Below the pieces are notes generated by a model. The model saw nothing but the letters and a program-made list of their open reading frames with translations. It searched no databases and had not been told where the DNA came from. From NCBI RefSeq assembly GCF_055900595.2, contig NZ_CM148325.1: a DNA stretch of 64,000 nt. The stretch is one strand, 5' to 3'. Each line of letters begins with the position of its first letter. Positions within the stretch are counted from its first letter, which is position 1. Shown here in pieces: positions 8,513 through 43,587 of the stretch. The translations under genes and the position numbers were made by a program.

Positions 8513-9523
8513 ACAGCGCTGTTGTGCAGTCAACGAGGTTTTCTGTCTTTTCGTCGGTCATTCAGCATCATTAAACGGGTCTCTGCCTCTTTCTGTTCCT
8601 GTGGTGTCACTTCCCCGCACGGCTGACCGTTCAGGTTGTAACGGGCGCCACCTGCTATTAACGCACGGTAATAGCGCGGAGACTGCACATAAGACGCCAC
8701 TGCTGCATGTAATGTACCAGCGCCAAACGCCAGTTCTCGGATGGCGATATCCTGTATCAGGTCGTCAGGTATCCCCACTTTAAGTGGTTTTGTTTTTTTC
8801 CCGGTTGAATGACTCAGGCCAGAGTTCCACAAGACGAATAATGCGCTTACGGTTTTTGCTCTGGCGTTTTGTCATGTCGCCACGGTGTTTTATCAGCAGG
8901 TTTCTGTTTATCGTTCAACTGTGGTATCTGGTCACCGGCCTTCATTTTGTATGCTGTGTCCGTTTTATTCTGCAGCGGCGTTGCCGGTGATTTACTGAAA
9001 ATACCCTGCGGTTTACGGTTAATGGTCAGAGTTACCATCAATTTTGTTACCTCGCGCTGTCAATGGAAGTAGTACCTCATCCGATATCTGAAAATGTTTT
9101 CCGGTGGATGTTACAGCGAATTTCATGTAAGACATGTTGTTGTCGGTATTGTTCAGTACTGTGCGTTGTGAGCGTATTCGTTATCAGACAGAGGGGCAGG
9201 GAACAAACGTCAGAGGTTAAGGATATCCGGGAACAAATGGCGTAAACGGACATCTCAGTGCCTGAGAAACAGTACAGGTCAGGCCATCATGGCCTGCAAA
9301 CAGAGCCCTGGCGACCCCGTGGCCGAAAACGAAACAATAACCCGCGCGCAGTGCGAGGAATCCGGATGTGAAGCAATCAGCAGGTAATATTAATGGCAGG
9401 ACCAGCAGGTTCTTTAAACAAACGAACATGCTGTAATTGATATTTTGCTTATTGTATTTTCTTTTTAGTTATTAAATTAATTTATTTACGAAAAATTTTC
9501 TGCAGATACAGGATGGGAATTCA

Positions 9524-9552
9524 GGGTGTCATCACGCCTTATGATGACACCC
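9524..9552. terminator. Perfect 11-bp inverted repeat hairpin (gggtgtcatca-N7-tgatgacaccc) downstream of the LacI-family gene
   Basis: Read directly; no flanking T-run on either strand, so it may be a protein-binding palindrome rather than a terminator. Confidence 0.3.
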
Positions 9553-9633
9553 TTCCCCTGGTTGTGGAAAACCGAAGGATATATCAGGTTCAGCAACAAA
9601 ATCAGTGAGCTGAAAGATACCAGTCCCCCAGCT

Positions 9634-10653
9634 TCAGCAGCTTTCACGTAAACATAAACAGGGCTCAATGAATATCTGATTGCTCCAGTTACCTTCTTTA
9701 ATTCGTTCCAGCAAAACATTTCCTGCTTCCAGACCAATTTTCCTGTGAGGAACGGCCATTGTTGTTAATGATGGTTGGCAAACTTTGCTGACGTCACTGT
9801 CACCAAATCCTACTACGGCGAGCTCGTCTGGAACTTTGATCCGTCTTCGTTGACATTCATAGAGAACACCGCAGGCTAACTCATCTGACACACATACCAG
9901 GGCATCCAGTTCCGGCCATGCGAGCAAAAATTCCGGTAGTTGTGATGCTCCGGTGGAAAAAACAGGTGGCAGAGCAGCGTTAATAACACGGTTGGGAGAC
10001 ATATGATGGCGTAACATAGCTTTATACCATCCCTGTAAATGCTGCTGAAAGATCCACTGTTCCTGGTTAGCGCATAGCAAACCGATATTCTGATAACCAC
10101 GTTGTACCAGCATATCCGTCAGCTCGAACATTGCTGCAACATTATCAATACCAATGTTGATATCTATCGGATCAGTACGAATGGCACCGATTTCTATAAC
10201 AGGAATCGAGGCATTTTTGAGCAAGTGACGCACGGTACTATTATGCTCAACACTAAGCAAAATTGCTGCAGCGATATTAGAAGCCAGCAGGGTTTCCAGC
10301 AGTTTTTCTTCTTGTTCCAGACGATGGCGTGACTCAGCCAGGATTATTTGATACCCCGCTGGTTGTAGCACATGTTGCAGCCCGGCAAACATTTCCGTGC
10401 ATCCCGCTTCAGCCAGGTTTGGCACGACCATTGCGATCGTGTGTGAAGATGCCGATGCCAGTGCGCTTGCAGTGAGGTTGGGCATATACCCTAATTCATT
10501 AACTGCGGCTTCAATCTTCTCCCTCAATTTATCTGAAACTTGTTCGGGAGTGCGTAACGCTCTGGATACAGTCATTGTGCCAACTCCCGCGAGTTGCGCG
10601 ACATCAGCAATAGTGACTTTACCTGTACTACGACGTTTTCGGGTTATTGCCAT
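9634..10653 (-). CDS. LacI-family transcriptional regulator
   Basis: N-terminal HTH VTIADVAQLAGVGTMTVSRAL plus periplasmic-binding-protein-like sugar-binding fold; divergent from the PTS operon. Confidence 0.85.
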   Translation of the reverse strand: MAITRKRRSTGKVTIADVAQLAGVGTMTVSRALRTPEQVSDKLREKIEAAVNELGYMPNLTASALASASSHTIAMVVPNLAEAGCTEMFAGLQHVLQPAGYQIILAESRHRLEQEEKLLETLLASNIAAAILLSVEHNSTVRHLLKNASIPVIEIGAIRTDPIDINIGIDNVAAMFELTDMLVQRGYQNIGLLCANQEQWIFQQHLQGWYKAMLRHHMSPNRVINAALPPVFSTGASQLPEFLLAWPELDALVCVSDELACGVLYECQRRRIKVPDELAVVGFGDSDVSKVCQPSLTTMAVPHRKIGLEAGNVLLERIKEGNWSNQIFIEPCLCLRESC

Positions 10654-10785
10654 ACAAAATCCTGCTCAGCGACTACATATGGAGATCTTTTATTACTTAT
10701 CATCAACGGCTTCCTGCACTGCCAGTAGCAGAGTATACCTCTTAATATCTGCCATAAGTCTGGATTTAATCAGTGAAATCTATTT

Positions 10786-10799
10786 TGATAGCGCTATCA
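10786..10799. promoter_or_regulatory. Candidate LacI-family operator 1 (perfect 14-bp palindrome TGATAGCGCTATCA)
   Basis: Perfect palindrome in the divergent intergenic region between the LacI-family gene and the PTS operon. Confidence 0.55.
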
Positions 10800-10819
10800 C
10801 AAATTCGAACAATACCTCC

Positions 10820-10833
10820 TGATAGCGCTATCT
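10820..10833. promoter_or_regulatory. Candidate LacI-family operator 2 (TGATAGCGCTATCt, 13/14 palindromic)
   Basis: Second copy of GATAGCGCTATC 34 bp downstream of the first. Confidence 0.5.
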
Positions 10834-10904
10834 TTGTGATATTGATCGCAGATATACCGTCGTTACTTGAATACATTCTGGTCATATAAATAAGAAATTA
10901 GGGG

Positions 10905-11354
10905 GTGGGAGTGCTTAATATCTGGCTTTCTGATTCAACAATCGCATTACGAAAGAATGCCGCAACCTGGCAGCAGGCATTAGATATCTGTGCCAGACCG
11001 TTACTGGATGCAGAGATAATTACGACGGATTATCTCAGTGCGATAAAGACACAACATGAAAAACTGGGGCCTTATTATGTCCTGGCACCCGGGCTGGCCA
11101 TGCCGCATGCCCGACCAGAAGAAGGGGCAAAAGGATTAGGTTTATCATTATTAAAACTTGAAGAAGGTGTCAGTTTTCATACAGAGGAATTTGATCCTGT
11201 AGATGTTATCATTTTACTTGCCGCACCAGACAAACACAGTCATATCGAAATGATATCTGCACTGGCTGAGTTATTCTCCAGCGAAAAAGATTTACATGAA
11301 TTGCATCAGGCTCGCAATGTGGAGGAAATAAAAAAGATAATTTCACGGTTCTGA
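10905..11354 (+). CDS. PTS EIIA component (ascorbate/mannitol-type EIIA-2 family)
   Basis: 149 aa with the EIIA-2 pattern around LAMPHARPEEG; GTG start per ORF track. Confidence 0.75.
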   Translation: MGVLNIWLSDSTIALRKNAATWQQALDICARPLLDAEIITTDYLSAIKTQHEKLGPYYVLAPGLAMPHARPEEGAKGLGLSLLKLEEGVSFHTEEFDPVDVIILLAAPDKHSHIEMISALAELFSSEKDLHELHQARNVEEIKKIISRF

Positions 11355-11432
11355 TTACATTATAAATTCAGTCTTTTCACAACATTGCGCCGTTGCGTGA
11401 TGGGACTTCTTCAACTTAAAATGGTGAATATA

Positions 11433-11705
11433 ATGAAAATTATGGCTATTTGTGGCTCAGGGCTTGGTAGTAGTTTTATGGTCGAAATGAATATTAAAAA
11501 AGTTCTGAAAAAAATGGATATAGAGGCGGAAGTGGAACATTCCGATCTCTCATCAGCAACGCCAGGGGCTGCCGATTTATTTGTGATGGCCAAAGATATT
11601 GCTGCCAGTGCCAGCGTACCGGAAAGTCAGTTGGTGGTTATCAACAACATCATTGATATTAATGAACTCGAAACGCAACTGCGTAACTGGTTAGCAAAAC
11701 AATAA
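11433..11705 (+). CDS. PTS EIIB component (ascorbate-type)
   Basis: MKIMAICGSGLGSS phosphocysteine loop; internal Met chosen over the track ORF start at 11385. Confidence 0.75.
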   Translation: MKIMAICGSGLGSSFMVEMNIKKVLKKMDIEAEVEHSDLSSATPGAADLFVMAKDIAASASVPESQLVVINNIIDINELETQLRNWLAKQ

Positions 11706-11727
11706 CCTTAATTGAAGCGAGGTGGAT

Positions 11728-13116
11728 ATGTTTATCCTTGAAACGCTGAATTTTGTTGTTGATATACTTAAAGTGCCCGCGATACTGGTCGGCTTGATTG
11801 CCTTAATTGGTCTGGTTGCCCAGAAAAAATCTTTTTCAGATGTTGTTAAAGGTACAATTAAAACTATTCTCGGCTTTATTGTACTGGGCGGTGGTGCCAC
11901 TGTTTTGGTTGGTTCGTTAAATCCTCTTGGGAGTATGTTTGAACATGCCTTTAATATTCAGGGCATCATTCCGAATAATGAGGCTATTGTTTCTATTGCG
12001 CTGGAAAAATATGGCGCATCGACGGCCCTTATTATGGCATTTGGTATGGTGGCGAATATTATTGTTGCCCGCTTTACCCGCCTTAAATATATCTTCCTGA
12101 CCGGACACCACACATTTTACATGGCCTGCATGATTGGTGTGATTCTGACAGTGGCTGGTTTTGAAGGTATATCACTGGTCTTTACCGGTTCTCTTATTCT
12201 GGGACTTGTGATGGCATTTTTCCCGGCATTAGCACAACGCTATATGAAGCGTATTACGGGGAATGATGACATTGCTTTTGGTCACTTTGGCACTCTGGGA
12301 TATGTACTTTCTGGCTGGATTGGCAGCGTGTGCGGTAAAGGTTCCCGCTCCACCGAAGAGATGAATTTGCCCAAAAATCTGAGCTTCCTGCGCGACAGTT
12401 CCATCTCTATTTCTCTTACGATGATGGTGATTTATCTGATCATGGCGATCAGTGCTGGTCGTGAGTTCGTTGAAAGCCAGTTCAGTGGTGGTCAAAACTA
12501 CCTTGTCTACGCCATCATAATGGCCATCACCTTCGCTGCTGGTGTATTTATTATTCTGCAAGGCGTGCGTTTAATCCTTGCTGAAATAGTTCCGGCATTT
12601 ACCGGGTTTTCAGAAAAGCTGGTGCCGAATGCCCGTCCGGCCCTCGATTGCCCGGTTGTGTATCCGTATGCGCCAAACGCAGTGTTAGTTGGTTTCTTGT
12701 TTAGCTTTTTTGGCGGTCTGGTAGGGCTATTTTTGTTGGGACAGATGAAACTGGTGTTGATTCTTCCGGGTGTCGTTCCTCACTTTTTTACCGGGGCGGC
12801 TGCTGGCGTATTTGGTAACGCTACGGGGGGACGTCGTGGCGCAATGATTGGTGCTTTTGCGAATGGCTTATTGATTACCTTCCTGCCAGTACTGTTATTG
12901 CCGGTTCTTGGGGCGATAGGCTTTGCTAATACGACCTTTTCCGATGCAGATTTTGGTGCTGTCGGCATCGTCCTCGGAAACCTGGCACGTTATCTCTCAC
13001 CTTTTGCCATCACCGGACTTGTAGTAGCGCTATTTGTGCTGCTGGTTGCCTGGAACATTTTCGCCAGTAACAAAATCGCTGCCAAAGCGCAGAAGAAGAG
13101 TGGAGCCAAATCATGA
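11728..13116 (+). CDS. PTS EIIC permease (UlaA/SgaT ascorbate family)
   Basis: About 460-aa polytopic membrane protein; ATG at 11728 after GAGGTGG Shine-Dalgarno. Confidence 0.8.
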   Translation: MFILETLNFVVDILKVPAILVGLIALIGLVAQKKSFSDVVKGTIKTILGFIVLGGGATVLVGSLNPLGSMFEHAFNIQGIIPNNEAIVSIALEKYGASTALIMAFGMVANIIVARFTRLKYIFLTGHHTFYMACMIGVILTVAGFEGISLVFTGSLILGLVMAFFPALAQRYMKRITGNDDIAFGHFGTLGYVLSGWIGSVCGKGSRSTEEMNLPKNLSFLRDSSISISLTMMVIYLIMAISAGREFVESQFSGGQNYLVYAIIMAITFAAGVFIILQGVRLILAEIVPAFTGFSEKLVPNARPALDCPVVYPYAPNAVLVGFLFSFFGGLVGLFLLGQMKLVLILPGVVPHFFTGAAAGVFGNATGGRRGAMIGAFANGLLITFLPVLLLPVLGAIGFANTTFSDADFGAVGIVLGNLARYLSPFAITGLVVALFVLLVAWNIFASNKIAAKAQKKSGAKS

Positions 13117-13943
13117 ATGTTAAAGAATTGACTCAATTTGCACGGGATATACGTATCCAGACGCTTAAATCATTAACTCATCTCGGCTTCGGTCATTATG
13201 GTGGCAGCATGTCGGTTGTGGAAACGCTGGCAGTGCTTTATGGCGCTGTAATGAAAATTGATCCTGCTGCTCCCGACTGGCCTGAGCGTGACTATTTTAT
13301 CCTGTCCAAAGGACATGCCGGACCTGCTCTCTACAGTACTCTGGCGCTGAAAGGCTACTTTCCACTGGAAGAATTAAGCACCTTAAATCAGAACGGAACC
13401 CGCTTACCAAGTCATCCGGATCGGCTAAAAACGTGTGGTGTTGATAGCACCACAGGATCGCTGGGGCAGGGGATATCCATTGCCGGAGGGATGGCGCTGT
13501 CGCATAAACTGGCGGGGCGCAAGAATCGGGTTTTTTGTATTGTCGGCGATGGCGAACTTAATGAAGGCCAATGTTGGGAAGCTTTCCAGTTTATCGCGCA
13601 TCATCGTTTGAATAACCTCACTGTGTTTGTGGACTGGAACAAACAGCAGCTTGATGGTCAACTGGATGAAATTATTAATCCATTTGATTTGGAAGGAAAA
13701 TTCCGGGCTTTCGGTTTTGATGTCGTGACAGTGAAGGGCGATGATATTGAGGGCTTGTTGAATGTAGTTAAACCTGTCCTGCCAGCTGAGGCCAGACCGA
13801 GAGTGGTCATTCTCGATAGCATTAAAGGGCAGGGGGTGCCGTGTCTCGAGCAACTCAGTAATTCTCATCACTTACGCCTCACAGAAGAGATGAAGGGGAC
13901 GCTAAACGAAACAATTCGCCAACTGGAGGCTATGCATGATTAA
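13113..13943 (+). CDS. Transketolase, N-terminal (TPP-binding) subunit
   Basis: Split-transketolase N-half (HYGGSMS, GHAGPALY, IVGDGELNEGQ); start overlaps the EIIC stop. Confidence 0.85.
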   Translation: MNVKELTQFARDIRIQTLKSLTHLGFGHYGGSMSVVETLAVLYGAVMKIDPAAPDWPERDYFILSKGHAGPALYSTLALKGYFPLEELSTLNQNGTRLPSHPDRLKTCGVDSTTGSLGQGISIAGGMALSHKLAGRKNRVFCIVGDGELNEGQCWEAFQFIAHHRLNNLTVFVDWNKQQLDGQLDEIINPFDLEGKFRAFGFDVVTVKGDDIEGLLNVVKPVLPAEARPRVVILDSIKGQGVPCLEQLSNSHHLRLTEEMKGTLNETIRQLEAMHD

Positions 13944-14889
13944 TCTCGCACCGGCAGGACAAAAAGACAGCATTGAAATGCGCAAAGTTTATGCAGATTT
14001 TATCGCGCAACAGAGTAAAAACGTCAGTTCTGTCATTGCTCTTGAGGCTGATTTAATGAGTTCCATGGCAATGGACAGCGTGGCGCAGGATTATCCAGAT
14101 CACGTCATTAATTGCGGCATTATGGAAGCCAATGTTATCGGCACAGCTGCAGGGCTGGCCTTAACCGGGCGCAAGCCATTCGTGCATACCTTTACCGCAT
14201 TTGCCAGTCGTCGCTGTTTTGATCAACTCTTTATGTCGCTTGATTACCAGGGCGCTAACGTCAAAGTTATAGCTTCTGATGCGGGTGTTGCTGCTTGCCA
14301 CAATGGCGGAACACATATGTCATTTGAAGATATGGGAATTGTGCGCGGGCTGGCGCATTCGGTGGTGATGGAGATGACAGATGCCGTAATGTTCAGCGAT
14401 ATCTTGCGTCAACTCGTTGCACTGGAAGGATTTTATTGGATTCGTACCATTCGGAAGCAAGCAGCGAGTATTTACGCACCAGGTACAACCTTTACAATTG
14501 GCAAAGGGCAGGTATTACGTGAAGGTACGGATGTCACCTTAATTGCTAATGGCATTATGGTGGTGGAAGCCCTGGAGGCCGCACGTCAACTTGAGCTGGC
14601 TGGGGTAAGTGTAGCGGTGATTGATATGTTTACGCTCAAACCCGTTGATCGGATGTTAATTAAAAATTATGCCGAAAAAACAGGACGGATCGTAACATGT
14701 GAAAACCATAGTATTCATAATGGATTAGGTTCAGCAGTTGCTGAAGTGCTTGTAGAAACTTGTCCTGTGCCCATGCGTCGGGTGGGGGTTAAAGAGCGGT
14801 ATGGCCAGGTTGGAACTCAGGACTTTTTACAGAGAGAGTACGGGTTAACCGCGCAAGATATTGTGGCGGCAGCCAGAGAGCTATTGTAA
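13936..14889 (+). CDS. Transketolase, C-terminal subunit
   Basis: Transketolase pyrimidine-binding and C-terminal domains; start overlaps the N-subunit stop. Confidence 0.85.
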   Translation: MINLAPAGQKDSIEMRKVYADFIAQQSKNVSSVIALEADLMSSMAMDSVAQDYPDHVINCGIMEANVIGTAAGLALTGRKPFVHTFTAFASRRCFDQLFMSLDYQGANVKVIASDAGVAACHNGGTHMSFEDMGIVRGLAHSVVMEMTDAVMFSDILRQLVALEGFYWIRTIRKQAASIYAPGTTFTIGKGQVLREGTDVTLIANGIMVVEALEAARQLELAGVSVAVIDMFTLKPVDRMLIKNYAEKTGRIVTCENHSIHNGLGSAVAEVLVETCPVPMRRVGVKERYGQVGTQDFLQREYGLTAQDIVAAARELL

Positions 14890-15077
14890 TTCATGGAGTT
14901 TGTTTACCATTCTGTTTTTCTTAAAAGTGAGTGTCTGTGCGGTCACTAAACTCGGTAATAAAGCAGTTCATTGCAGGATAAGAAGCGTTTGGTTGTGTCG
15001 TTTTACCGTAAGAACCGACCGCCGTATGTAGCCATTAAGCCAGTATTGGTAACGTAGGTGCCCACCTTTTCAAACTG

Positions 15078-15337
15078 GTGGACGCCTGTTATGGAGCAAA
15101 AACATTATCCGCAGAACCCCGCAGATCATTTTCAAATGAGTTAAACTTCAAATGGTTAAACTGGTTTTGCAACCAGGAGCCTCTGTTGCCCGTATTGCCC
15201 GGGAACACGATATCAATGATAACCTCCTGTTCAAATGGCTCAGACTCTGGCAGAACGTAAGGTACAGGGAGATGAAAAAGGCAATAGCAGAACTGAGTGA
15301 CAGTGAAACCATTCTGGCGTACAGGGTTGGATGGTGA
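15078..15337 (+). pseudogene. IS66-family accessory transposase gene (tnpA-type) remnant
   Basis: ...QPGASVARIAREHDINDNLLFKWL... parallels the intact IS66-family orfA at 18862 (QPGACVAQIARENGINDNLLFNW) but is split across frames. Confidence 0.5.
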
Positions 15338-15835: not shown

Positions 15836-15960
15836 AAATGGCATCTGAATCGATCGCAGTTTGGCATTCGAATCGATCATGATTTGGCATCCATCTCCGA
15901 TCACAGTTTGGCATCACAATCGATCACGATTTGGCATGCTTCCGATCATTGATTGGCATC
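15836..15960 (+). repeat. Six spaced TTTGGCAT/TGGCAT repeats (IS21-family terminal multiple repeats)
   Basis: aaaatggcat..agtttggcat..gatttggcat..agtttggcat..gatttggcat..gattggcat at about 20-bp spacing. Confidence 0.6.
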
Positions 15961-16033
15961 CTGCCAGTCACTCCGGGAATTCACTCTTTTCACCACAGTC
16001 TCCATTGCCGTGTTTAAACCAGTGGAGACGTCA

Positions 16034-17599
16034 ATGTCCAGAAAGCGAAAATCCAGGAGCACTATGGAAACCTGTTTTAAGATCCTTCAGCTCAAGTTCG
16101 ACAAGAAGCTGACTAACCGTTGTATCGGACTGACGTTACACATCAGCGCCTCAACCGTTTTTGAGGTTATTGCCCGCTTCAAAGCCTCTTCTCTGCCATG
16201 GCCATTACCTGCTGATATATCCCATGACACGCTGGAGAAACTCATTTTTCCGCCCAAAGACACCTTTGCATCAGAGCTTGTAATGCCTGACATGTTGTAC
16301 TTCGATACGGAAATGAGAAAACCAGGTGTGACGCGGCAACTGCTGTGGATGGAATACAAGGCACAGGCAGGTGACAAAGCGATGGGATACTCGCACTTCT
16401 GCCTTTGCTACCGGGAGTGGAAAAAAACGCGACGTCTCTCCATGCGCCAGGAGCATCGTGCCGGCGAAAAGCTTTTTATCGACTTCTGTGGTCCTACTGT
16501 TCCTGTTATTAATCCGGACACCGGTGAGATACGCCGCGTGGCAATCTTCGTGGCCGTAATGGGGGCGTCCAAGTATACCTACGTTGAAGCGTGCGAAGGT
16601 CAGGACATGATGTCATGGTTAAATGCCCACAGCCGTTGCCTGACCTTCCTGGGCGGCGTACCGAAGCTGCTCATCCCCGATAACCTCAGAAGCGCAGTGA
16701 AAAAGACCGATCGCTATGAGCCTGTCATCAACGACAGTTATCAGGCACTGGCTGAGCACTATGGCACGGTTATCATCCCGGCCCGACCACGCAAACCTAA
16801 AGATAAACCAAAAGCAGAAAACGGCGTCCTCATCGTCGAACGATGGCTTCTTGCCCGCATCCGTAATGAAACCTTCCACACGCTCAGGGCGCTGAATGCG
16901 CGCCTTTGGGAGTTACTGACAGACATGAATAACCGGCCAATGAAGGGGTACGGCAATCAAACCCGTGCAGAACGCTTCCGCATACTGGATGCGCCAGCTC
17001 TCTCTCCGCTGCCTCTGACACCTTATGAATACACGGAATACAAAGCCGTGAAGGTTGGCCCTGACTACCACGTTGAATATGCCCGTCACTGGTACTCCGT
17101 TCCACACGAACTGGTCGGTCAGCGTCTGTCACTGAAAGCGGGGCAGTCGGTGGTACAGCTCTGGCACAAGGGGCAGTGTGTGGCACAACATCCGCGCAGC
17201 ACACATGAATATAAACACACAACCAATCCGCTTCACATGCCAGAGCGCCACCGGCAGCACGGGACATGGACACCGGAACGCCTTATCGGGCAGGGAAAAC
17301 GTACGGGCCCGTCCACAGGCCGGGTGGTTGAATCCATGCTGAAGGCAAAACCCCATCCGGAACTGGCTTATCGTGCAGTTCTGGGGCTGCTGGCACTTCA
17401 GAAAAAATACGGCCCGGAACGGCTGGAAAAGGCCTGTTACGTTGCCCTGCACTATAATGCCCCGGACAGACGCTTTATCGACAATCTGCTGCGTCACCAT
17501 CGGGAGAACCTGGAGCTTCCGTTATCCCGCCAGGGCGAACAACATCCGGCATATGCTTCAGAGCATGAAAACCTGTGTGGTCCGGGCTACTACCACTGA
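16034..17599 (+). CDS. istA: IS21-family transposase IstA
   Basis: N-terminal HTH then DDE core; ATG at 16034 after GGAGACG SD; the track ORF from 15953 is an upstream extension. Confidence 0.75.
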   Translation: MSRKRKSRSTMETCFKILQLKFDKKLTNRCIGLTLHISASTVFEVIARFKASSLPWPLPADISHDTLEKLIFPPKDTFASELVMPDMLYFDTEMRKPGVTRQLLWMEYKAQAGDKAMGYSHFCLCYREWKKTRRLSMRQEHRAGEKLFIDFCGPTVPVINPDTGEIRRVAIFVAVMGASKYTYVEACEGQDMMSWLNAHSRCLTFLGGVPKLLIPDNLRSAVKKTDRYEPVINDSYQALAEHYGTVIIPARPRKPKDKPKAENGVLIVERWLLARIRNETFHTLRALNARLWELLTDMNNRPMKGYGNQTRAERFRILDAPALSPLPLTPYEYTEYKAVKVGPDYHVEYARHWYSVPHELVGQRLSLKAGQSVVQLWHKGQCVAQHPRSTHEYKHTTNPLHMPERHRQHGTWTPERLIGQGKRTGPSTGRVVESMLKAKPHPELAYRAVLGLLALQKKYGPERLEKACYVALHYNAPDRRFIDNLLRHHRENLELPLSRQGEQHPAYASEHENLCGPGYYH

Positions 17600-17615
17600 C
17601 AGAAGGAACAACAGT

Positions 17616-18371
17616 ATGAGTGATAACCTGTTAAACAAACTGACCCAACTGAAACTCCCGGCGATGGCCGGGAGCCTGATACGGCAGCGGGAAACGCCTC
17701 AGACCTACGACGAGCTGTCGTTCGAGGAAAGGCTGACGCTGCTGGTTGATGACGAGCTTCTGAGCAGGGAAAACATCCGTGTGGCACGGTTGAGAAAAAA
17801 TGCCGGCCTGAAATACCAGGCAACACCGGAAGGGCTGCGCTATCCGGCCTCAAGAGGTCTGCGGGCTGAACAGATGAGGGAACTGCTGAACGGCCACTAC
17901 ATAACCCACAGGAAAAACCTGCTGATAACCGGTCCGACAGGATGTGGCAAGAGCTGGATAGCCAATGCGCTGGGCGAACAGGCATGTCGACAGAAACACA
18001 GCGTCCGGTACTGTAGAACCGGGCGATTACTGGAACAACTGGCTCAGGGACGTGTTGATGGCAGCTGGCTGAAGTATCTGAAACAGTTGCAAAAAATACA
18101 GGTTCTAATCCTGGACGATCTGGGGCTGGAGTCGTTAAGTAACGCCCAGTGTAATGACCTTCTGGAGCTCATAGAGGATCGTTACGGACAAAGCAGCACG
18201 ATAGTGGTAAGCCAGTTCCCGGTAGATAAATGGCATGGTCTGATGGAGAAGCCAACAACAGCAGATGCCATCCCGGACAGACTGGTACATAACTCACACA
18301 GACTAGTCCTTCAGGGAGAGTCCCTGAGGAAAAATCCCTCGATAGTGGAAAGCATCGAAAAAACGAGTTAA
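17616..18371 (+). CDS. istB: IS21-family ATP-binding helper IstB
   Basis: Walker A ITGPTGCGKSW and Walker B LILDDLG; ATG at 17616 just after the istA stop. Confidence 0.85.
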   Translation: MSDNLLNKLTQLKLPAMAGSLIRQRETPQTYDELSFEERLTLLVDDELLSRENIRVARLRKNAGLKYQATPEGLRYPASRGLRAEQMRELLNGHYITHRKNLLITGPTGCGKSWIANALGEQACRQKHSVRYCRTGRLLEQLAQGRVDGSWLKYLKQLQKIQVLILDDLGLESLSNAQCNDLLELIEDRYGQSSTIVVSQFPVDKWHGLMEKPTTADAIPDRLVHNSHRLVLQGESLRKNPSIVESIEKTS

Positions 18372-36083: not shown

Positions 36084-37046
36084 TTACGTCTCCTCTTGGG
36101 AGTGGATAATATGGGTGCCTGTTTCGCCACGCAGTGCCGCGGACAGGCATTCAGGCGTGGTGATAATCACTCTTTTACCTCCACGTTCCAGGAACTCCAG
36201 ACTGGCAAGAATCTTCGGTAACATACTCCCAGGCGGGAAGTGACCCTCCTGCATGTAACGGGCCATCGTTAGGACATCCACTGTATCCAGTGCATGCTGG
36301 TTGGGTTTCCCAAAATGAATACTCACTTTTTCCACGCCGGTGGTGATCACCAGAATGTCGGCGTGAATTTCGCGAGCCAGTAGCGCGCTAGAGAGATCTT
36401 TGTCGATAACCGCGTCCACGCTTTGGTAATCCCCTGCGTCAGTACGCACCACCGGAATGCCACCGCCGCCCGCGCCAATCACCACAAAGCCTTGCTGGAT
36501 CAGAGTCTTAATGGCAGGTGCTTCGACAATACGTTTCGGTTCCGGCGAGGCGACCACGCGGCGATAGCCCCGTCCGGCATCTTCAACAAAACGCCAGTCA
36601 GGGTTTGCCTTTTGTAGTTCATCACGCTGGTTTTCACTAAAGAATGCACCGATGGGCTTGGTGGGATGGACAAACCCCGGATCGTTTTTATCCACTTCCA
36701 CCTGAGTCACCACGGTGACGGCTTTTTTCTCGCCGTGAGGCGCCAGCCGGTTGTTCAGCGCCTGCTGGATCAGATAGCCAATGCCGCCTTGCGTATCCGC
36801 CACACAGTTCGCCAGCGGCGTTAAGGGTAGCCCTTCGCGCTCGTGGGCTATCTCCGCGCGGCGTAAATCCAGACCGACCTGCGGCCCGTTGCCGTGGGTC
36901 AGCACAATGTCGTAATCGGAAGCCAGCATTTCCAGAACCGTATCGGCGACGGCCTTCACCGCCTCCGCCTGATGCTCAATCGACTGGCTGGCGTTATCTT
37001 TGATAATGCTGTTGCCACCAATGGCAACGACCACAAGTTCTTTCAT
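36084..37046 (-). CDS. Carbamate kinase-like protein (ArcC/YahI/YqeA family)
   Basis: MKELVVVAIGGNSI...THGNGPQVG amino-acid kinase fold. Confidence 0.85.
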   Translation of the reverse strand: MKELVVVAIGGNSIIKDNASQSIEHQAEAVKAVADTVLEMLASDYDIVLTHGNGPQVGLDLRRAEIAHEREGLPLTPLANCVADTQGGIGYLIQQALNNRLAPHGEKKAVTVVTQVEVDKNDPGFVHPTKPIGAFFSENQRDELQKANPDWRFVEDAGRGYRRVVASPEPKRIVEAPAIKTLIQQGFVVIGAGGGGIPVVRTDAGDYQSVDAVIDKDLSSALLAREIHADILVITTGVEKVSIHFGKPNQHALDTVDVLTMARYMQEGHFPPGSMLPKILASLEFLERGGKRVIITTPECLSAALRGETGTHIIHSQEET

Positions 37047-37072
37047 AGAATTATCTTCCGTTTGCAGGCTAT

Positions 37073-38623
37073 TCAGGTCGTTTTAGTCTCTTCCTGCTCA
37101 GACGCAGCCACTGTTTCACGGCTATCAATAACATGCTTGAGGGCAAACATAGCAAGCATCATCAGGTAGGCCACAACAAACACAATCGAGCTGCCTTCCG
37201 CAAAGCCAACCGCTGGGGAGTGAATCACGCCAAACAGCGATAACAGTGCTCCAAAGGATGCAGCTATCGCCCCGCGCAGCGGCTTATTCATAATGGCAAA
37301 GATAGCAATGCATCCCCACAGCATGCTGGCCAGCGGTGCACCGCTTCCCAGATGCATCAGTCCATCGTAATAGACGCCTTTGCTGTGCAACAGGTCGCTA
37401 CCAAGTTTCTCAGCGGATGTTCCGGCTGCGCCCATCACGCTGTTAACGATGGTCAATGCCCAGTTGGCGACCCATGGGAACAGACAGATGAAAATGACGG
37501 GAACCTCGACTTTAGGAGTTTCTCGCACCACCTGATTGGCGGTTACCACACCGATAAAAACCAGAATTGGCACTATAGCAGTCATGGGAATAATGGCGAG
37601 CATAAACGCGCCCAACCCAAACAATGGCACCAGAAACATAGTGATGCCTGATGCGAGGGTATAGCAGATACTAGCGCCCATAGCTTTCCAGCCTGCATGC
37701 CCAACATATACGGTTACCGGGAACGGATTACCCAGCATGCAACCGAGCATGGAGGCAAAGCCGTTCGCCATCATGACCTTACGGGTGTTGTATTCATCAC
37801 CAGCCGCGTGCGCACTTTCAATGTTCTCGAGGTCAAAAATGTAGTTAGCCAGGCCCAAAGGAACTGCAGAAGCCAGATATGGCAGAGCGTGCGGCAAACC
37901 TTGCAGGAAGCTCCTTACATGAATTTCCGGCGGGTTGAAGCCGAAGGAAGACATCGACGCTTTAATGTCTTCCGGGCTTTGTAAACCGGATATCCACGCT
38001 AGGGACGTACCAGCAATCAGCAACAGCAAACCGGTAGGAATATGGGGAAAAATCGGCTTCTTACCGAACCAGTTAATGAAGATCAATAACAGGACGATGA
38101 AAGAAACTGTCGGCGCTTCGAACGCTTGCAGCATCGGGTTCATTGCCAGCAGTAATAACCCCAGTCCGGACAGACAAGAAAGCAGCACTGTACGCGGGAT
38201 CATCTTGCGGATAGTCTCACCCAGGAAGGAGCCACCGACCAGGATCAACGCTTCGACAAAGCACCACACCAATCCTATCTGAATAGCAAAGTTGGCATCT
38301 TTGGTTTGCTGATAAACCGGCATCAGCACCAGGAATGTCACGGTAAAGATTGAGGGTGCGCTCGGTCCAGACGGCAGCGCCGTTACATCGCTACGACCGG
38401 TTTTCTTCACCATCTGTAGACCAAACCAGGAGTAGCAGACACTGGCCGCCAGCACTGCAAGACCAAAGGCAGGCGCAATGCGTCCATAGACAATTTCAGT
38501 AGGGATTCCGACGACAAAAATTAGCAGACCCATCATTGTCAGCAGGTTAGTCAGATTGTTGGTCATCAGTCCAAAGTAAGCCGCCCAGTCACCACGTTTC
38601 CATTCTAGTTTTATGCTGTTCAT
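37073..38623 (-). CDS. Polytopic membrane transporter, possibly an NCS2/AzgA-like nucleobase-type permease
   Basis: 516 aa with about 12 predicted TM segments between the DUF1116 and carbamate kinase genes; family call is tentative. Confidence 0.6.
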   Translation of the reverse strand: MNSIKLEWKRGDWAAYFGLMTNNLTNLLTMMGLLIFVVGIPTEIVYGRIAPAFGLAVLAASVCYSWFGLQMVKKTGRSDVTALPSGPSAPSIFTVTFLVLMPVYQQTKDANFAIQIGLVWCFVEALILVGGSFLGETIRKMIPRTVLLSCLSGLGLLLLAMNPMLQAFEAPTVSFIVLLLIFINWFGKKPIFPHIPTGLLLLIAGTSLAWISGLQSPEDIKASMSSFGFNPPEIHVRSFLQGLPHALPYLASAVPLGLANYIFDLENIESAHAAGDEYNTRKVMMANGFASMLGCMLGNPFPVTVYVGHAGWKAMGASICYTLASGITMFLVPLFGLGAFMLAIIPMTAIVPILVFIGVVTANQVVRETPKVEVPVIFICLFPWVANWALTIVNSVMGAAGTSAEKLGSDLLHSKGVYYDGLMHLGSGAPLASMLWGCIAIFAIMNKPLRGAIAASFGALLSLFGVIHSPAVGFAEGSSIVFVVAYLMMLAMFALKHVIDSRETVAASEQEETKTT

Positions 38624-38735
38624 GGAATCTCCTTAACAGGTTAAGCATCGTTTGCGATCATGGAGATCGCCCAGCCCTGAAGGTAAACAACGTTTTCCGC
38701 TACTGTGGGGCTAACTGCGTTAGCCCCGGTTATTG

Positions 38736-40154
38736 TTATTGGCAGTAGTGGTCACGCCAGTTGAGGATCGCCTTTTCAAAACAAGTGAACGGCGGGTGAA
38801 CAATTCCTGCGCCGATCATGCCGATCCCTGCGTCTTTGTGCGCAATGGCTGTGTTAATTACCGGCAGAATGCCTGTACTGCCTACACGCGTAATATCGAT
38901 AGCGGTCGGTACGCCCATAAAACCAAGCAGGGGAATGGTGACGTTGGGGTTTTCTCCGAGAGTGATTTCTCTCATTTTACGTGAGAAATCAATAGCTTCC
39001 TCAACTGTTCCGCCCACCAGTGACACAATAGCTGGTGCCGTCGCCATAGCGAAACCGCCAACGCCGTAGGTTTCGGTAATTGCACTATCACCGATATCAC
39101 GTCCGGAATCCTCTAGCTTATAGCCCGCAAACATCGGCCCAATCACCTGCTGCGCCGGACCGGTAAACCACTTGCCCGGCAAACCGCTAATACGAAGACC
39201 GAACTCAACACCATTGCGTGCCATCGTTGTCACCACGGTGCTGTATTCAATGCCGTGCGCAGCGTCCATTGCGGCTTTACACATTGCCATCCATGTTGGT
39301 CCTGAGAAGTAATCACTACTGAGGACAAACTCGAACACCTCACGCTGCTGCTCAACAGGGTAGCCAGTCTGAATAATCCACGGCGTCAGCGTCTGAATCA
39401 GCAGCGCCGTCCCGGCGTTGTTGCGGTTATGGCACTCATCGCCCATATGCAGCGCCTGCGCTAACATCAAGTGCAGATCGATTTCGCCCGCCAGCTTCAT
39501 AGCATCGCGCAACATAGGTCCCAGTACATCTCGCATCCAGTTAAGACGCTCTATAACGCTCTGGTCGTTAGCGCCCATACGCAGGATCTTTGCCATCTGC
39601 TCGCTCATATTGGTATATGCGCGGTTTCCATAGGTTTTGTTCTCGACGATGTGCATAAACATCGATGCAGACGTGACACCCGCCATTGAGCCGACACAGT
39701 CATGTTCGTGGCACGGAGAGAAGATGATTTCACCTGAAGCAGCTAGTTCGGCGGCATCATCCAGATCTTTCGCCAGTCCTTCAAATACCAGAGCCCCGGT
39801 TACTGCGCCCTTCATTGCGCCGCACATTTTTTCCCAGTGGATTGGCGGCCCGGCGTGAAGGATAGTGTTACGGGTCATACCCGGCACGACGTTGATCGCC
39901 TGATCATAGCCAATTAGCACAGGATGCGACTGGATAATGCGTTCCAGCGCCAGCTGATTAGCAGCTGCAATTTTGTCTGCCAGTGGTGAAGCGGCAATGT
40001 CGTCCAGTGCCGTTACCACTTGTATGTTTCCTTGGCCTGGCGGTGTCCAGTCAAGTTGGGTTACCGGTACATTCTGCTTTTTCATGTCATCGCTGAACAT
40101 TTCGATACCGACATTAATAACGTTCAGCGGCTGATTAAACAGTGTCTGGCTCAT
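38736..40154 (-). CDS. DUF1116-family protein (YlbE/YahG-like)
   Basis: 472 aa; start overlaps the FdrA-like stop (ATGA), indicating an operon. Confidence 0.65.
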   Translation of the reverse strand: MSQTLFNQPLNVINVGIEMFSDDMKKQNVPVTQLDWTPPGQGNIQVVTALDDIAASPLADKIAAANQLALERIIQSHPVLIGYDQAINVVPGMTRNTILHAGPPIHWEKMCGAMKGAVTGALVFEGLAKDLDDAAELAASGEIIFSPCHEHDCVGSMAGVTSASMFMHIVENKTYGNRAYTNMSEQMAKILRMGANDQSVIERLNWMRDVLGPMLRDAMKLAGEIDLHLMLAQALHMGDECHNRNNAGTALLIQTLTPWIIQTGYPVEQQREVFEFVLSSDYFSGPTWMAMCKAAMDAAHGIEYSTVVTTMARNGVEFGLRISGLPGKWFTGPAQQVIGPMFAGYKLEDSGRDIGDSAITETYGVGGFAMATAPAIVSLVGGTVEEAIDFSRKMREITLGENPNVTIPLLGFMGVPTAIDITRVGSTGILPVINTAIAHKDAGIGMIGAGIVHPPFTCFEKAILNWRDHYCQ

Positions 40155-41701
40155 CAGCCTTCCTCCCCTTTAAATATAAATTCACGTGCCAGTAATCCGG
40201 TGTTGGTGCTACTGCTTGCCCAAATAACCCCGGCATCGGTCAACATCTGACACTGTTTTTTCAGCGACGGTGTATCAAGGTCGGTTCCCAGCACATAGCC
40301 GAGGATCTCAAGCGGGCGACCGTCTGCGGCAGCAATTTCTTTGGCTTCAACAATTGTATCCAGCATCACTCCAACCGGATCTTCATGTGATCCAAATCCA
40401 AGAATGAAGTCCATCACGATCACGCCAACTTCAGGATCCTGTGCTTCCTGCAAGAGCCGGGTAATGCGATTGGTGGGATCGATCATCGGATGTGGTTTGC
40501 CGTTGGTAAAATAATCATCGCCGAAATCGAGGAAGGTATGCGCCACGCTACGGTTGAGATCTGTAAGGCGGAACGCCGGATTCGGGTGAATATTGCTATA
40601 CACATCCGAGAGTTTTTCCATGGCAGTAAACATCGCTTCATCGCATAACGTGCCACCACAGAACAGGCCACGGATATACTTTTGTTGTGGAGTCAGACGG
40701 GAGCGAACCTCTTCAATCAGCTGCCAGTTGAGCGGATGCAAATCCAGACTCTCTTTTTTCACACCAGTCAACAGTACCGCTTTCAAGGCAGCCTCTTTAG
40801 TACCGCGGGCAAACTGTAGGCCTTCTTCATCCGCAGGGGTGGACTCACGTCCGAGGAAACACACCACCACAGGCTTGTGACAGGTGCGCGCACGTTCCAG
40901 CACCTTACGGGCTACCGCTGGTGCAGGAGGTTTGGATATAAGCGTAATGATCTCAGTTTGTGGATCGGCCTCCAGCATGCTAATCGCGTCAAGCATCATC
41001 AGGCCGCCAATTTTTTCACTCATATCGCGTCCACCTGTCCCAATCAGCTGGGAAATCCCGCCGCCAAATTCGTGAATGCGTACGCTCAGCTCCTGGCTAC
41101 CCGTACCGGAGGCACCAATGATTCCGATGTTGCCGCGACGCACTGCATTGCCAAAACACAACGCTGCGCCGTTAATGATGGCGGTTCCACAATCAGGCCC
41201 CATCATCAACAACCCTTTTTCATGTGCCAGATGCTTGAGTTCCAGCTCGTCCTCAAGAGAGACGTTGTCAGAAAACAGCATAACATTGAGGTTATTTTGT
41301 AGTGCCTGACGAGCTTCACGAGCAGCAAACAGGCCATTGACAGAGATCACCGCCAGATTACTCTCTGGAGCATGCTTCTTCGCACTGGCAATCGTGGCAT
41401 AGCGTGCTTCGTGCTGGCCTCCCTGTTCTTTATGCGCAAACAGCTCATCAATCGCTATTAGCGTCCGCTCGTTCGCCTCCTCGCTGGTACCTTTAATGAC
41501 AATCATCAGATCGCCACTTTTCGCCTCTTCCAGCTCAGGGGTCAGCAGACCGAGATTCTTCAGCACCCCCTTATTCATCTCTGTCGCCATAGCAACAAAT
41601 GCCTGCTCAACTCCATCAAGCTTATTTGCGCGCGTGGAGATAGACATCAGTGAAACAGAATCAAAATACGTGTTTTTTTTTACAACTATCCTGATTGACA
41701 T
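40154..41701 (-). CDS. FdrA-family protein (CoA-ligase/succinyl-CoA-synthetase-like fold)
   Basis: 515 aa; GIIGASGTG nucleotide-binding loop. Confidence 0.75.
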   Translation of the reverse strand: MSIRIVVKKNTYFDSVSLMSISTRANKLDGVEQAFVAMATEMNKGVLKNLGLLTPELEEAKSGDLMIVIKGTSEEANERTLIAIDELFAHKEQGGQHEARYATIASAKKHAPESNLAVISVNGLFAAREARQALQNNLNVMLFSDNVSLEDELELKHLAHEKGLLMMGPDCGTAIINGAALCFGNAVRRGNIGIIGASGTGSQELSVRIHEFGGGISQLIGTGGRDMSEKIGGLMMLDAISMLEADPQTEIITLISKPPAPAVARKVLERARTCHKPVVVCFLGRESTPADEEGLQFARGTKEAALKAVLLTGVKKESLDLHPLNWQLIEEVRSRLTPQQKYIRGLFCGGTLCDEAMFTAMEKLSDVYSNIHPNPAFRLTDLNRSVAHTFLDFGDDYFTNGKPHPMIDPTNRITRLLQEAQDPEVGVIVMDFILGFGSHEDPVGVMLDTIVEAKEIAAADGRPLEILGYVLGTDLDTPSLKKQCQMLTDAGVIWASSSTNTGLLAREFIFKGEEG

Positions 41702-42509
41702 AATTACCTCCGGACCTGTGGCTCAGGGCGCAGGCATCCGCCATGCCATACAGCATGTCGCATCCAGAACTTGAGCCTATATTTTTTATGTCAGTAACAT
41801 ATTGCGTAGAAATGGGTTGTGGCTCAGTAATAAATTGGTTCAGTAGCCGTCCGACTCTTTCCCGATAACGCTGATTAAATGCTTCCTCTAAAGTTATTTT
41901 GCTGAGAAGCGTTATGTTATTTCCTGCAAGTTGTAATGCTGCTAAGAAATCGTATCTATACTTCCTTAGTGGATGTCCTTGAATAAATAAAATAGTGCTT
42001 AAACCTACTAAATAATCATCCGATGATGGCGTCAGCCCTATTCCAAGACCAATTAACTGGTTGACTGCCGCAGTGATGTTTTCTCCTGTACACAACGCCT
42101 TCAGCAAATTTTTTCGGCGGTTGAGTAATTGGCGAGAAATTTCCTGATAAAATGGATTGTCACCCTGGTACAGAAATAATGTGTCGTTGCTTCTTAGTTG
42201 TTGGCGGATAAACTCTTCCCAATGCTGCCAGCCGACTTTGGCAAGGCTTGCTGAATCAGATGTCCACCGTGGTATTCGCCACATCTGACAACCGGTTATT
42301 TCTATCCATTTATCATTTCCAACAGTTATTCCAGACCCGCTAAAATTGACCTGTTCACCGGGGTGAAAAAGGTCTTCATAATGTGTCAGTGCTAAACGAC
42401 AACTGTTAGGTGCGTTATCACAATCCTCACTCAGTAACGTCAGCAGTCGCTGCTGTTCAGGTATTAACAGATTTACCGCATGGGAAAAAACCTGTTCAAC
42501 CTGGCCCAT
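41661..42509 (-). CDS. DUF2877-family protein (YlbF/YahE-like)
   Basis: 282-aa ORF upstream of and overlapping the FdrA-like gene. Confidence 0.55.
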   Translation of the reverse strand: MGQVEQVFSHAVNLLIPEQQRLLTLLSEDCDNAPNSCRLALTHYEDLFHPGEQVNFSGSGITVGNDKWIEITGCQMWRIPRWTSDSASLAKVGWQHWEEFIRQQLRSNDTLFLYQGDNPFYQEISRQLLNRRKNLLKALCTGENITAAVNQLIGLGIGLTPSSDDYLVGLSTILFIQGHPLRKYRYDFLAALQLAGNNITLLSKITLEEAFNQRYRERVGRLLNQFITEPQPISTQYVTDIKNIGSSSGCDMLYGMADACALSHRSGGNYVNQDSCKKKHVF

Positions 42510-42594
42510 TCCCCGAAAAGTGAGAAACGCGCAGTCTGCGGTTAGTGCCCGAAAAGATTGCCGTGATAATATAGCGATAATCGTGCTCCTGTTG

Positions 42595-43200
42595 TCAGGC
42601 TCCAGCCGAAATCAGCAACTCGGCAATTTTGTGGTAGCCTTTTTCTCGCGCCAGCTCCAGCGGGGTTTTACCGTATTTATCCGTCATGTGCGGGTTTGCG
42701 CCATGCTCAAGCAACAGTTTGACGATCTCCTGCTGCTTTTCACCGCCGTCATTCAGCACGATGGCCTCTAGGAGCGGCGTCCAGCCAACAAAATTAGTAT
42801 GGTTGACATTGATATCAGTACGCATCAGCAATTCACGTACAATCTCGACATGGCCTTTTTCGCAGGCAGGTGTAATACCAACACCGCCAAAACGGGTTAG
42901 GCAATTAAGGTCGGGGTTAGCCGGTAATACCGTACGCAACAGTGTTAAATCATTATTCAGGCAGCCAATCAGGAAGGGATTAAAACAAGTTTGATCTTGT
43001 TTATTAATATCAGCACCTGCGGAAATCAATAAAGAAACGCAGTCATAATGTTTATTCAGACTGGCAATAATAATTGCAGTACGCCCCTCGCGGTTAGTCG
43101 CATTAATATCAACCTTTTTATCAAGGCATGATTTTAATCCATCGGAATTACCTTGTTCTGCCGCCAGCAGAAATTCTGTAATGAGTTCTTTATTGGACAT
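42595..43200 (-). CDS. Ankyrin-repeat protein (YahD-like)
   Basis: 201 aa with tandem ankyrin repeats (GRTAIIIASLNKHYDCVSLLISAGADIN; GWTPLLEAIVLN...LLLEHGANPH; GKTPLELAREKGYHKIAELLISAGA). Confidence 0.8.
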   Translation of the reverse strand: MSNKELITEFLLAAEQGNSDGLKSCLDKKVDINATNREGRTAIIIASLNKHYDCVSLLISAGADINKQDQTCFNPFLIGCLNNDLTLLRTVLPANPDLNCLTRFGGVGITPACEKGHVEIVRELLMRTDINVNHTNFVGWTPLLEAIVLNDGGEKQQEIVKLLLEHGANPHMTDKYGKTPLELAREKGYHKIAELLISAGA

Positions 43201-43587
43201 AATCGATCTCCTGCTCTTTTTAAGATTTTACAAATATAACAAGCCAAGAATAGCAACAGAATGCATAGAGCACCATCCATTTAAAATTTACTCATCATTA
43301 GACCATGAATTATTGAAAAAAAATTAACAATAATAAGAGAGTGTGATATAGTGCAATATTTCTATTATAGCTGGGGATATTTTAGCCATTAATCCGCAGT
43401 CATATAAATAAAGGTGGTCTGCAGCACGGATAGCTGCCTGTAATTAAAATTCAGATGTGTGATTTCCTTCAAATTAAATGTAAATACGGTGTTAATTTTT
43501 TCAAAACTGATTGTCGGTTATAAGAATTACAAATACATTCAACAATCATCATGTTGTGTATGTGTATTATCGCCAGAGGAAAGAAAG

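Follow-up and report, generated by a model that had tools for sequence, protein, structure and literature searches.

We analysed a 64-kb stretch of DNA from contig NZ_CM148325.1 of RefSeq assembly GCF_055900595.2, referred to throughout as the window, in which a gene for a regulator of the LacI/GalR family stands divergent from five genes encoding the EIIA, EIIB and EIIC components of a phosphotransferase system (PTS) and the two subunits of a split transketolase, TktN and TktC. Judged by comparison with related genomes, this six-gene unit is probably a complete, self-contained catabolic module and represents the Escherichia coli copy, borne on an island, of an ancestral locus of the Enterobacterales. 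Two palindromes located between the regulator and EIIA genes, designated O1 and O2, are strongly supported as the predicted binding sites of the adjacent regulator.

Conservation of two predicted operators beside the regulator gene

The original prediction on this DNA, made from the sequence alone, had placed two palindromes 34 bp apart in the intergenic region and proposed them as LacI-type operators. Both were found at the positions given for them, with a start-to-start distance of 34 bp in the window and TAGCGCTA as the core of each, and they were the sole matches with two mismatches or fewer in the whole 64 kb, for which about 0.15 would be expected. As two or more such matches appeared in 0 of 100 shuffles of the sequence, the pair goes beyond a chance match. 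At three mismatches no additional operator copies above chance were detected in the window, and a literature search for the operator did not find the exact 14-mer TGATAGCGCTATCA.

For footprinting, the regulator-to-EIIA intergenic regions of the window and of 82 orthologous loci were compared (n = 83; 81 distinct sequences). O1 was exactly TGATAGCGCTATCA in all 83 regions, from Escherichia to Rahnella, Serratia and Erwinia, and O2 was TG[A/G]TAGCGCTATCT in the same 83, leaving a single variable base. The start-to-start spacing of the two sites was 34 bp in most regions (68) and 35 bp in the other 15. Column conservation reached 1.00 in O1 and 0.98 in O2, compared to 0.67 in the spacer between them and 0.62-0.65 in the flanks.

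The regulator harbors a LacI helix-turn-helix (HTH) domain (PF00356, residues 14-59, 70 bits) followed by an effector domain resembling periplasmic binding proteins (Peripla_BP_3). Among its orthologs the HTH plus hinge is 93% conserved, versus 84% for the remainder of the protein, and the recognition helix is invariant. LacI has 360 amino acids with a C-terminal tetramerisation helix; because the regulator is shorter, we assume that it lacks this helix and would bind as two dimers, and not as a looped tetramer. Its top NCBIfam matches were Pseudomonas aeruginosa GntR, IdnR and E. coli GntR, all of them below the curated cut-offs (270 vs 400 bits). The GntR/IdnR/PtxS branch thus contains the closest named families, and the operator of P. 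aeruginosa GntR, a protein that is released by its effector and represses its own gene, contains the same TAGCGCT core (PMC5902321). The module differs from this branch, apart from the scores, in that the target is a PTS/transketolase operon and not gluconate genes.

Additional evidence came from paralogous modules, in which regulators sharing 42-48% identity with that of the window adjoin related PTS genes and the operator is either the same or symmetrically changed (TGTTAGCGCTAACA). A cognate regulator-operator pair would be expected to show just such a change, matched in both halves of the palindrome. The identical TGATAGCGCTATCA palindrome was found beside such regulators in both loci checked (L087 and L093). 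One regulator of 45% identity is paired with IIA-IIB-IIC genes and a ribulose-phosphate 3-epimerase homolog, and its operators, TGTTAGCGATAACA and TGTTAGCGCTAACT, lie 33 bp apart and are followed by a CRP-like site and the hexamer TACATT. In another module (regulator 42% identical), the TGATAGCGCTATCA motif occurs three times, as copies or near-copies that stand closer together than O1 and O2; this module has no linked sugar-phosphate enzyme, and its sole neighbour of note is a divergent alcohol dehydrogenase gene. In the paralogous modules, the CRP-like site and the -10 element fall within 1-2 nt of the corresponding positions. Among the regulators at 43-49% identity, P0125 was left out of this comparison, as it has no PTS context. 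Together, the footprint, in which regulator and site always occur jointly, the invariant recognition helix and the related operators of the paralogous modules sustain the assignment of the palindromes as LacI-type operators.

An ancestral locus of the Enterobacterales

A scan using one genome per species recovered orthologs of the regulator, with identities of 73-96%, in 80 species loci, from genera that include Escherichia, Citrobacter, Salmonella (arizonae), Enterobacter, Klebsiella, Raoultella, Kluyvera, Kosakonia, Lelliottia, Mixta, Cedecea, Serratia, Erwinia and Rahnella. The divergent six-gene unit had an identical make-up at every ortholog locus with enough sequence, and in 62 of the 83 loci, including that of S. 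arizonae (L027), its two flanks were formed by pta/yfcC and yfcD. In E. marmotae, the six genes encode proteins 91-98% identical to those of the window and are part of the core chromosome, flanked by pta-yfcC and yfcD-yfcE-yfcF; the module is likewise chromosomal in E. albertii, E. whittamii, S. arizonae, Citrobacter, Klebsiella and others. As we read this distribution, the module is an ancestral Enterobacterales locus, and no invention of extraintestinal pathogenic E. coli (ExPEC).

We take this locus to be STM2340-2345 of Salmonella Typhimurium, and the synteny of the S. arizonae copy is consistent with that assignment. The two systems share six genes in the same divergent order, with proteins of the window 75-94% identical to those of the S. 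arizonae copy (EIIA being the lowest), and the O1, O2 and CRP sites of S. arizonae match those of the window. In contrast to the Salmonella locus, the copy in the window lies in a mobile genomic island and not at the pta/yfcD site. STM2345 is PagR, a LacI-family regulator (PMC12413039; PMC7808427), whose published role is the activation of genes of SPI-2 (pathogenicity island 2 of Salmonella), which E. coli lacks.

Gene content and layout

The gene content and the divergent LacI-family regulator that had been proposed are borne out by the open reading frames and by Pfam and NCBIfam profile matches, which support all domains of the module (Table 1). A gap of 257 bp separates the regulator gene from that of EIIA, whose start is the one chosen by RefSeq, with a GTG in the same frame at 10905. 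The stop codon of the EIIC gene overlaps the start of that for TktN, and the TktN and TktC genes share 8 nt; such overlapping or tight junctions fit a single, translationally coupled transcript. No RNA element or riboswitch was detected in the control region or the operon by Rfam searches at E ≤ 1.

Table 1. Positions of the module genes and predicted control elements in the window, and loci holding the paralogous modules.
Feature	Position	Strand	Evidence and remarks
LacI/GalR-family regulator, 339 amino acids	9634..10653	-	PF00356 LacI HTH + PF13377/PF00532
Predicted -10 of the regulator gene, TATACT	10732..10737	-	near-invariant in orthologs; variants TATAAT or TAGAAT
Predicted operator O1, TGATAGCGCTATCA	10786..10799	no strand	perfect 14-bp palindrome, TGATAGC/GCTATCA, central CG; invariant through 10801
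Predicted operator O2, TGATAGCGCTATCT	10820..10833	no strand	palindromic at 13/14
Predicted CRP site TGTGA-tattga-TCGCA (TGTGAtattgaTCGCA)	10835..10850	no strand	centre 10842.5; 1 base after O2
Predicted -10 of the PTS/transketolase operon, TACATT (TAAAGT in most orthologs)	10872..10877	+	T1, A2 and T6 invariant
EIIA (PTS_EIIA_2 type)	10911..11354	+	PF00359, 118.6 bits; = WP_001317566.1 in BEN2908
EIIB	11433..11705	+	PF02302 (PTS_IIB), 62 bits; = WP_000699820.1 in BEN2908
EIIC, ascorbate/galactitol (EIIC-GAT) superfamily	11728..13116	+	PF03611, 510 bits; NF009549, 989 bits
TktN, split transketolase N-terminal (thiamine diphosphate-binding) subunit	13113..13943	+	PF00456 (Transketolase_N)
TktC, split transketolase pyrimidine-binding + C-terminal domain subunit	13936..14889	+	PF02779 + PF02780
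Paralogous modules	L088 7262-9026 and 4946-6936; L089; L093 5583-9044; L087		

Predicted promoter architecture and proposed model of control

In all orthologs a CRP-type site occupies a fixed position one base after O2. It follows the consensus TGTGA-N6-TCACA, found as TGTGA-N6-TC(A/G)C(A/G), and its conserved half-sites with a free 6-bp spacer are the signature of a CRP site. The -10 hexamer of the operon begins 21 nt further on in nearly all orthologs and is followed by a conserved YCAT, so that the order O2, 1 nt, TGTGA-N6-TCACA, 21 nt, TAAAGT is fixed across them. From the centre of the CRP site to the first base of the hexamer there are 29.5 bp, a distance typical of a class II CRP promoter. 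From the conservation and spacing of these elements we infer a CRP-dependent (class II) promoter with a predicted start near A10884, which would place CRP at -41.5, O2 at -57.5 and O1 at -91.5.

The operators most likely work jointly with the adjacent CRP site, and not by simply covering a sigma-70 promoter. A dimer bound to O2 should overlap the 22-bp footprint of CRP by a few bp, and repression is therefore proposed to proceed through exclusion of CRP and of the alpha subunit of the polymerase. In this model, LacI-family dimers would occupy O1 and O2 in the absence of inducer, with the O2-bound repressor keeping cAMP-CRP and RNA polymerase off the class II promoter. When the inducer is present, probably a phosphorylated product of the PTS or a related sugar acid, the repressor would leave, and in the absence of glucose CRP would activate a single transcript for EIIA, EIIB, EIIC and both transketolase halves. 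The PTS would then import and phosphorylate a sugar, and the two-subunit transketolase would pass the product to the pentose phosphate pathway. A known counterpart is galP1, in which the GalR operator lies directly upstream of a class II CRP site. The gal operon resembles the module in having a LacI/GalR-family operator beside a CRP site at -41.5, with CRP and O2 here at a predicted -41.5 and -57.5; it differs in that the second operator lies upstream in the module and not within the first gene, and no evidence of looping was found here.

That O1 and O2 chiefly autoregulate the divergent regulator gene, leaving the PTS operon mainly under CRP, we regard as doubtful, although the divergent layout would allow it and P. 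aeruginosa GntR does repress its own gene (PMC5902321). The minus strand of the O1-O2 spacer carries a weak -10-like TATTGT (10814 to 10809) at a distance of about 41 bp from the centre of the CRP site, and a promoter there would be overlapped by O1 and O2. However, this element is just moderately conserved, the best-conserved -10 on that strand, TATACT (10737 to 10732), and O1 are separated by more than 50 bp, and O2 lies immediately next to the CRP site of the predicted PTS promoter. Salmonella, Citrobacter, Enterobacter and others have an inverted repeat, TGTGAAATCACA, some 25-40 bp upstream of the regulator -10. The Escherichia copies have a degenerate form of this repeat (window equivalent TGATTAAATCCA, ~10758-10772), which may serve a further regulator of pagR.

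Direct coverage of a sigma-70 promoter by the two operators, with a -35 TTGATA in O1, a -10 AACAAT in the spacer and the start at O2, would be the classic arrangement for steric occlusion but is distinctly improbable. A consensus scan did find TTGATA-17-AACAAT at 10785-10813 on the + strand, where O1 and O2 would cover the -35 and the +1, but sigma-70-like matches were no commoner in this region than in shuffled sequence (13 found, 10.5 expected), and a promoter at O1 would leave a poorly conserved leader of about 90 nt. The candidate -10 also varies across orthologs (for example GCACCT or ATAAAG), whereas the TAAAGT after the CRP site is conserved. Because it is not conserved, the match at O1 was kept as a rival only, and we retain the model in which the O2-bound repressor acts on the CRP-dependent promoter.

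The PTS and its possible substrate

Membership of the PTS in the L-ascorbate (EIIC-GAT) family was supported by the PF03611 match of EIIC and by the presence of separate PTS_IIB and PTS_EIIA_2 proteins. To this extent the PTS is of the ascorbate type, as it had been described from the sequence. The description does not extend to the substrate: EIIC aligned to E. coli UlaA (PDB 4RP8) with 177 bits over ~390 residues, a level that falls short of orthology and makes it, by this comparison, a distant paralog of UlaA and not UlaA itself, and neither the module nor the DNA flanking it, in the window or at the E. marmotae, Rahnella, Erwinia and Serratia loci, was found to hold equivalents of UlaG, UlaD, UlaE or UlaF. 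We therefore use "ascorbate" as a family label and make no substrate call. E. coli UlaR is a regulator of the DeoR type. The E. coli ula operon (sgaTBA) has in common with the module the PTS family and the separate IIC, IIB and IIA; it differs in encoding UlaG, UlaD, UlaE and UlaF, in lacking a transketolase, in being controlled by UlaR and in its distant EIIC.

It is nevertheless conceivable, if unlikely, that the module is a second uptake system for L-ascorbate, in which the transketolase absorbs extra xylulose-5-phosphate. NCBIfam labels EIIC as an ascorbate transporter, and the analogous ula2 operon of Streptococcus pneumoniae (IIB, IIC, tktN, tktC) is induced 2-3 fold by ascorbate (PMC4324149), a weak induction that keeps ascorbate-like compounds among the possible substrates. 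Against this stand the distance to UlaA, the absence of linked Ula enzymes in the loci checked, and the sister modules, in which a PTS of this type is accompanied by a ribulose-phosphate 3-epimerase homolog or lacks a linked enzyme altogether; these point to a product at or near the pentose phosphate pathway. The ula2 operon (ulaR2-ulaB2-ulaA2-tktN-tktC) likewise joins an ascorbate-family PTS to a two-subunit transketolase (PMC4324149), a likeness of gene make-up; in contrast to the module, it has an activator, UlaR2, in place of a LacI-family repressor, a different operator and, in D39, no separate IIA gene.

Since the module consists of a PTS and a transketolase alone, and its sister modules have a ribulose-phosphate epimerase homolog or no enzyme, the product of the PTS would lie at or near the pentose phosphate pathway. 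We speculate that it is an intermediate of that pathway or is one step away from it, as a ketose phosphate would be. A search for extra catabolic genes beside the distant orthologs of Rahnella, Erwinia and Serratia yielded just pta, yfcD-type NUDIX and glutathione S-transferase genes, plus a KdgM porin in one Serratia. In that strain, Serratia oryzae (L076 8156-8860), the gene for a porin of the KdgM family, of the oligogalacturonate type, adjoins the regulator in the place held by yfcD elsewhere, which may hint at a plant-derived acidic sugar or may be a coincidence.

A split transketolase with an altered substrate channel

Separate polypeptides encoded by adjacent genes carry PF00456 on the one hand and PF02779 plus PF02780 on the other, and the closest solved structures, 6YAK for TktN (220 bits) and 6YAJ for TktC (241 bits), come from the split enzyme of Carboxydothermus hydrogenoformans. 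The residues for cofactor binding and catalysis, H26, H66, H100, D155, N185, H261, E411 and H473 (E. coli TktA numbering), are kept; the TktA sequence used for this alignment matched all numbered residues. The phosphate-binding residues R358, S385 and R520 are also kept according to a manual alignment supported by that with 6YAJ. The enzyme is, on these features, probably active on phosphorylated sugars.

The substrate channel (window 14275-14317, TktC residues 114-127) was found to be different, with Ser114 in place of His461 and His122-Asn123 in place of Glu468-Asp469. Of the 79 copies that gave a TktC match, 78 had the motif ASDAG..ACHNGGTHM, with conservative changes outside the three substituted positions, whereas 6YAJ keeps THAG..GEDGASHQ at the equivalent place. 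Given these non-canonical residues, the reaction may differ from the textbook one, and the transketolase may prefer a non-standard partner. Shaw 2018 is said to have reported activity for the Salmonella counterpart, TktC. That work (Shaw 2018, JBC) is cited in a review for the third transketolase of Salmonella, tktC (PMC12651746).

Occurrence in E. coli and island setting

Within E. coli the module proved accessory, in agreement with the original prediction, and not invariant in the core genome: the complete module was present, at an identity of at least 99%, in 132 of 5,426 complete genomes. It occupies varied chromosomal positions within island DNA, and its carriers include the avian pathogenic E. 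coli (APEC) strains BEN2908, IMT5155 and O2-211 and the uropathogenic strain F11; a poultry source was given for 27 of the 60 carrier records listed. The module sits in ExPEC/APEC islands such as PAI I5155 (PMC4232414). In BEN2908, the island lies on the nanC/nanM side, and the neighbours of the module include an AlpA-like regulator, a ProQ/FinO pseudogene, remnants of insertion sequences (IS) and a gene for a YadA-like adhesin.

The window ceases to be homologous to the native loci at 9630 and 14890, 4 bp or less from the outer stop codons, and in between its nucleotide sequence shares 93.4% identity with E. whittamii and 91.9% with E. marmotae. E. coli proper is thus seen, in our comparison, as devoid of the native locus at the pta/yfcD site, with some lineages carrying a captured copy on islands. 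A deletion remnant consisting of the last ~180 bp of tktC and downstream island DNA (window 14711-15100) was found in ~230 more complete genomes, so that module-deleted island copies (about 233) outnumber intact ones (132). In RM10410 (L085 3252-4543), the one example inspected, an IS1 stands exactly in place of the missing part of the module in the same island backbone.

No kinship was found with the ExPEC tkt1-type islands that the module had been said to resemble. The tkt1 gene is a single gene of 1,998 bp in a 16-kb island between metE and ysgA, where it is accompanied by genes for a glucose-type IIBC, a sugar isomerase and regulators of the RpiR and LysR types (PMC3349570). The module and the tkt1 island of APEC O1 are alike in being ExPEC-associated accessory DNA with a transketolase-like gene and a PTS gene; they differ in gene architecture, PTS family, regulators and chromosomal site. 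That the module is a part or variant of the tkt1 pathogenicity island deserves practically no credence, because the two have in common the word "transketolase" and an ExPEC context and nothing more, and BEN2908 carries both as separate loci, tkt1 at 4.23 Mb and the module at 4.88 Mb, ~640 kb apart. An identification with c3405-c3410 of CFT073 (PAI-metV) was also ruled out, these genes being a PTS of the maltose/glucose type.

Around the module, the ~590 bp at 9042-9630, between a pseudogene of the ProQ/FinO family and the stop codon of the regulator gene, are without an annotated gene in BEN2908 or N61; they are not homologous to the native locus and, in the part scanned (9300-9630), gave no Rfam match. 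After the module, an IS21-type element spans 15953-18371 (istA 15953-17599, istB to 18371), which is absent at that point in BEN2908 and N61, where the YadA-like adhesin gene comes next. Among the complete E. coli genomes of the collection, none matched more than 63% of window positions 1-25000 in one place. Further downstream, positions 21616-25731 encode a SPATE-type serine-protease autotransporter of 1,371 amino acids (Peptidase_S6 plus beta-domain) with IS66 genes on both sides. On the minus strand, a cluster at 36084-44517 encodes a carbamate-kinase-like protein, a 516-amino-acid protein, oxamate carbamoyltransferase subunits resembling AllG and AllH, and an FdrA-like protein with a CoA-ligase domain, together with a 201-amino-acid ankyrin-repeat protein, unusual in E. 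coli; a divergent gene for a LysR-type regulator adjoins it.

Discussion

The module of the window is, on the comparisons presented here, an island-borne member of a known and widespread enterobacterial locus. Several points weigh against the picture that we draw of it. In the control region, the right half-site for CRP in the window, TCGCA, agrees with the consensus at 4/5 positions, O1 at -91.5 has no obvious role in a model based on the blocking of CRP, and the 34 bp between O1 and O2 do not make a whole number of helical turns. The channel residues of the transketolase are non-canonical, and the numbers STM2340-2345 of the LT2 annotation were matched by synteny. Finally, PagR of Salmonella has been described as an activator of SPI-2 genes, not as a repressor of sugar genes (PMC12413039).

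As a tentative speculation, which we hold at low confidence, the module could be a minimal two-step pathway in which the ascorbate-family PTS brings in an unusual sugar (for example a free ketopentose, a heptulose or another rare ketose of plants or hosts) as its ketose phosphate, and a specialised transketolase cleaves this product directly, the altered channel seen in nearly all Enterobacterales copies examined being tuned to it. PagR would then be primarily a sugar-sensing repressor, with virulence control in Salmonella as a later add-on that ties virulence to this nutrient, and E. coli would have lost a pathway that some ExPEC/APEC lineages regained on islands.

These results correct a mislabel, in that the module is not the tkt1 island and "ascorbate" is the name of a family. 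They also tie a so far unstudied cargo of ExPEC/APEC islands to a Salmonella locus with two studied components, TktC and PagR. The module is otherwise ordinary in kind, and its pattern of loss and regain in E. coli is a further point of modest interest, while the substrate and the unusual transketolase residues pose a small biochemical question. The analysis provides a precise and testable model of the control region (O1, O2, the CRP site, the -10 and a start near 10884) that would be valid across the Enterobacterales. The operator motif lets Salmonella researchers ask if the effect of PagR on SPI-2 is direct, and the presence of an invariant operator beside pagR suggests that the ancestral job of PagR was local sugar control.

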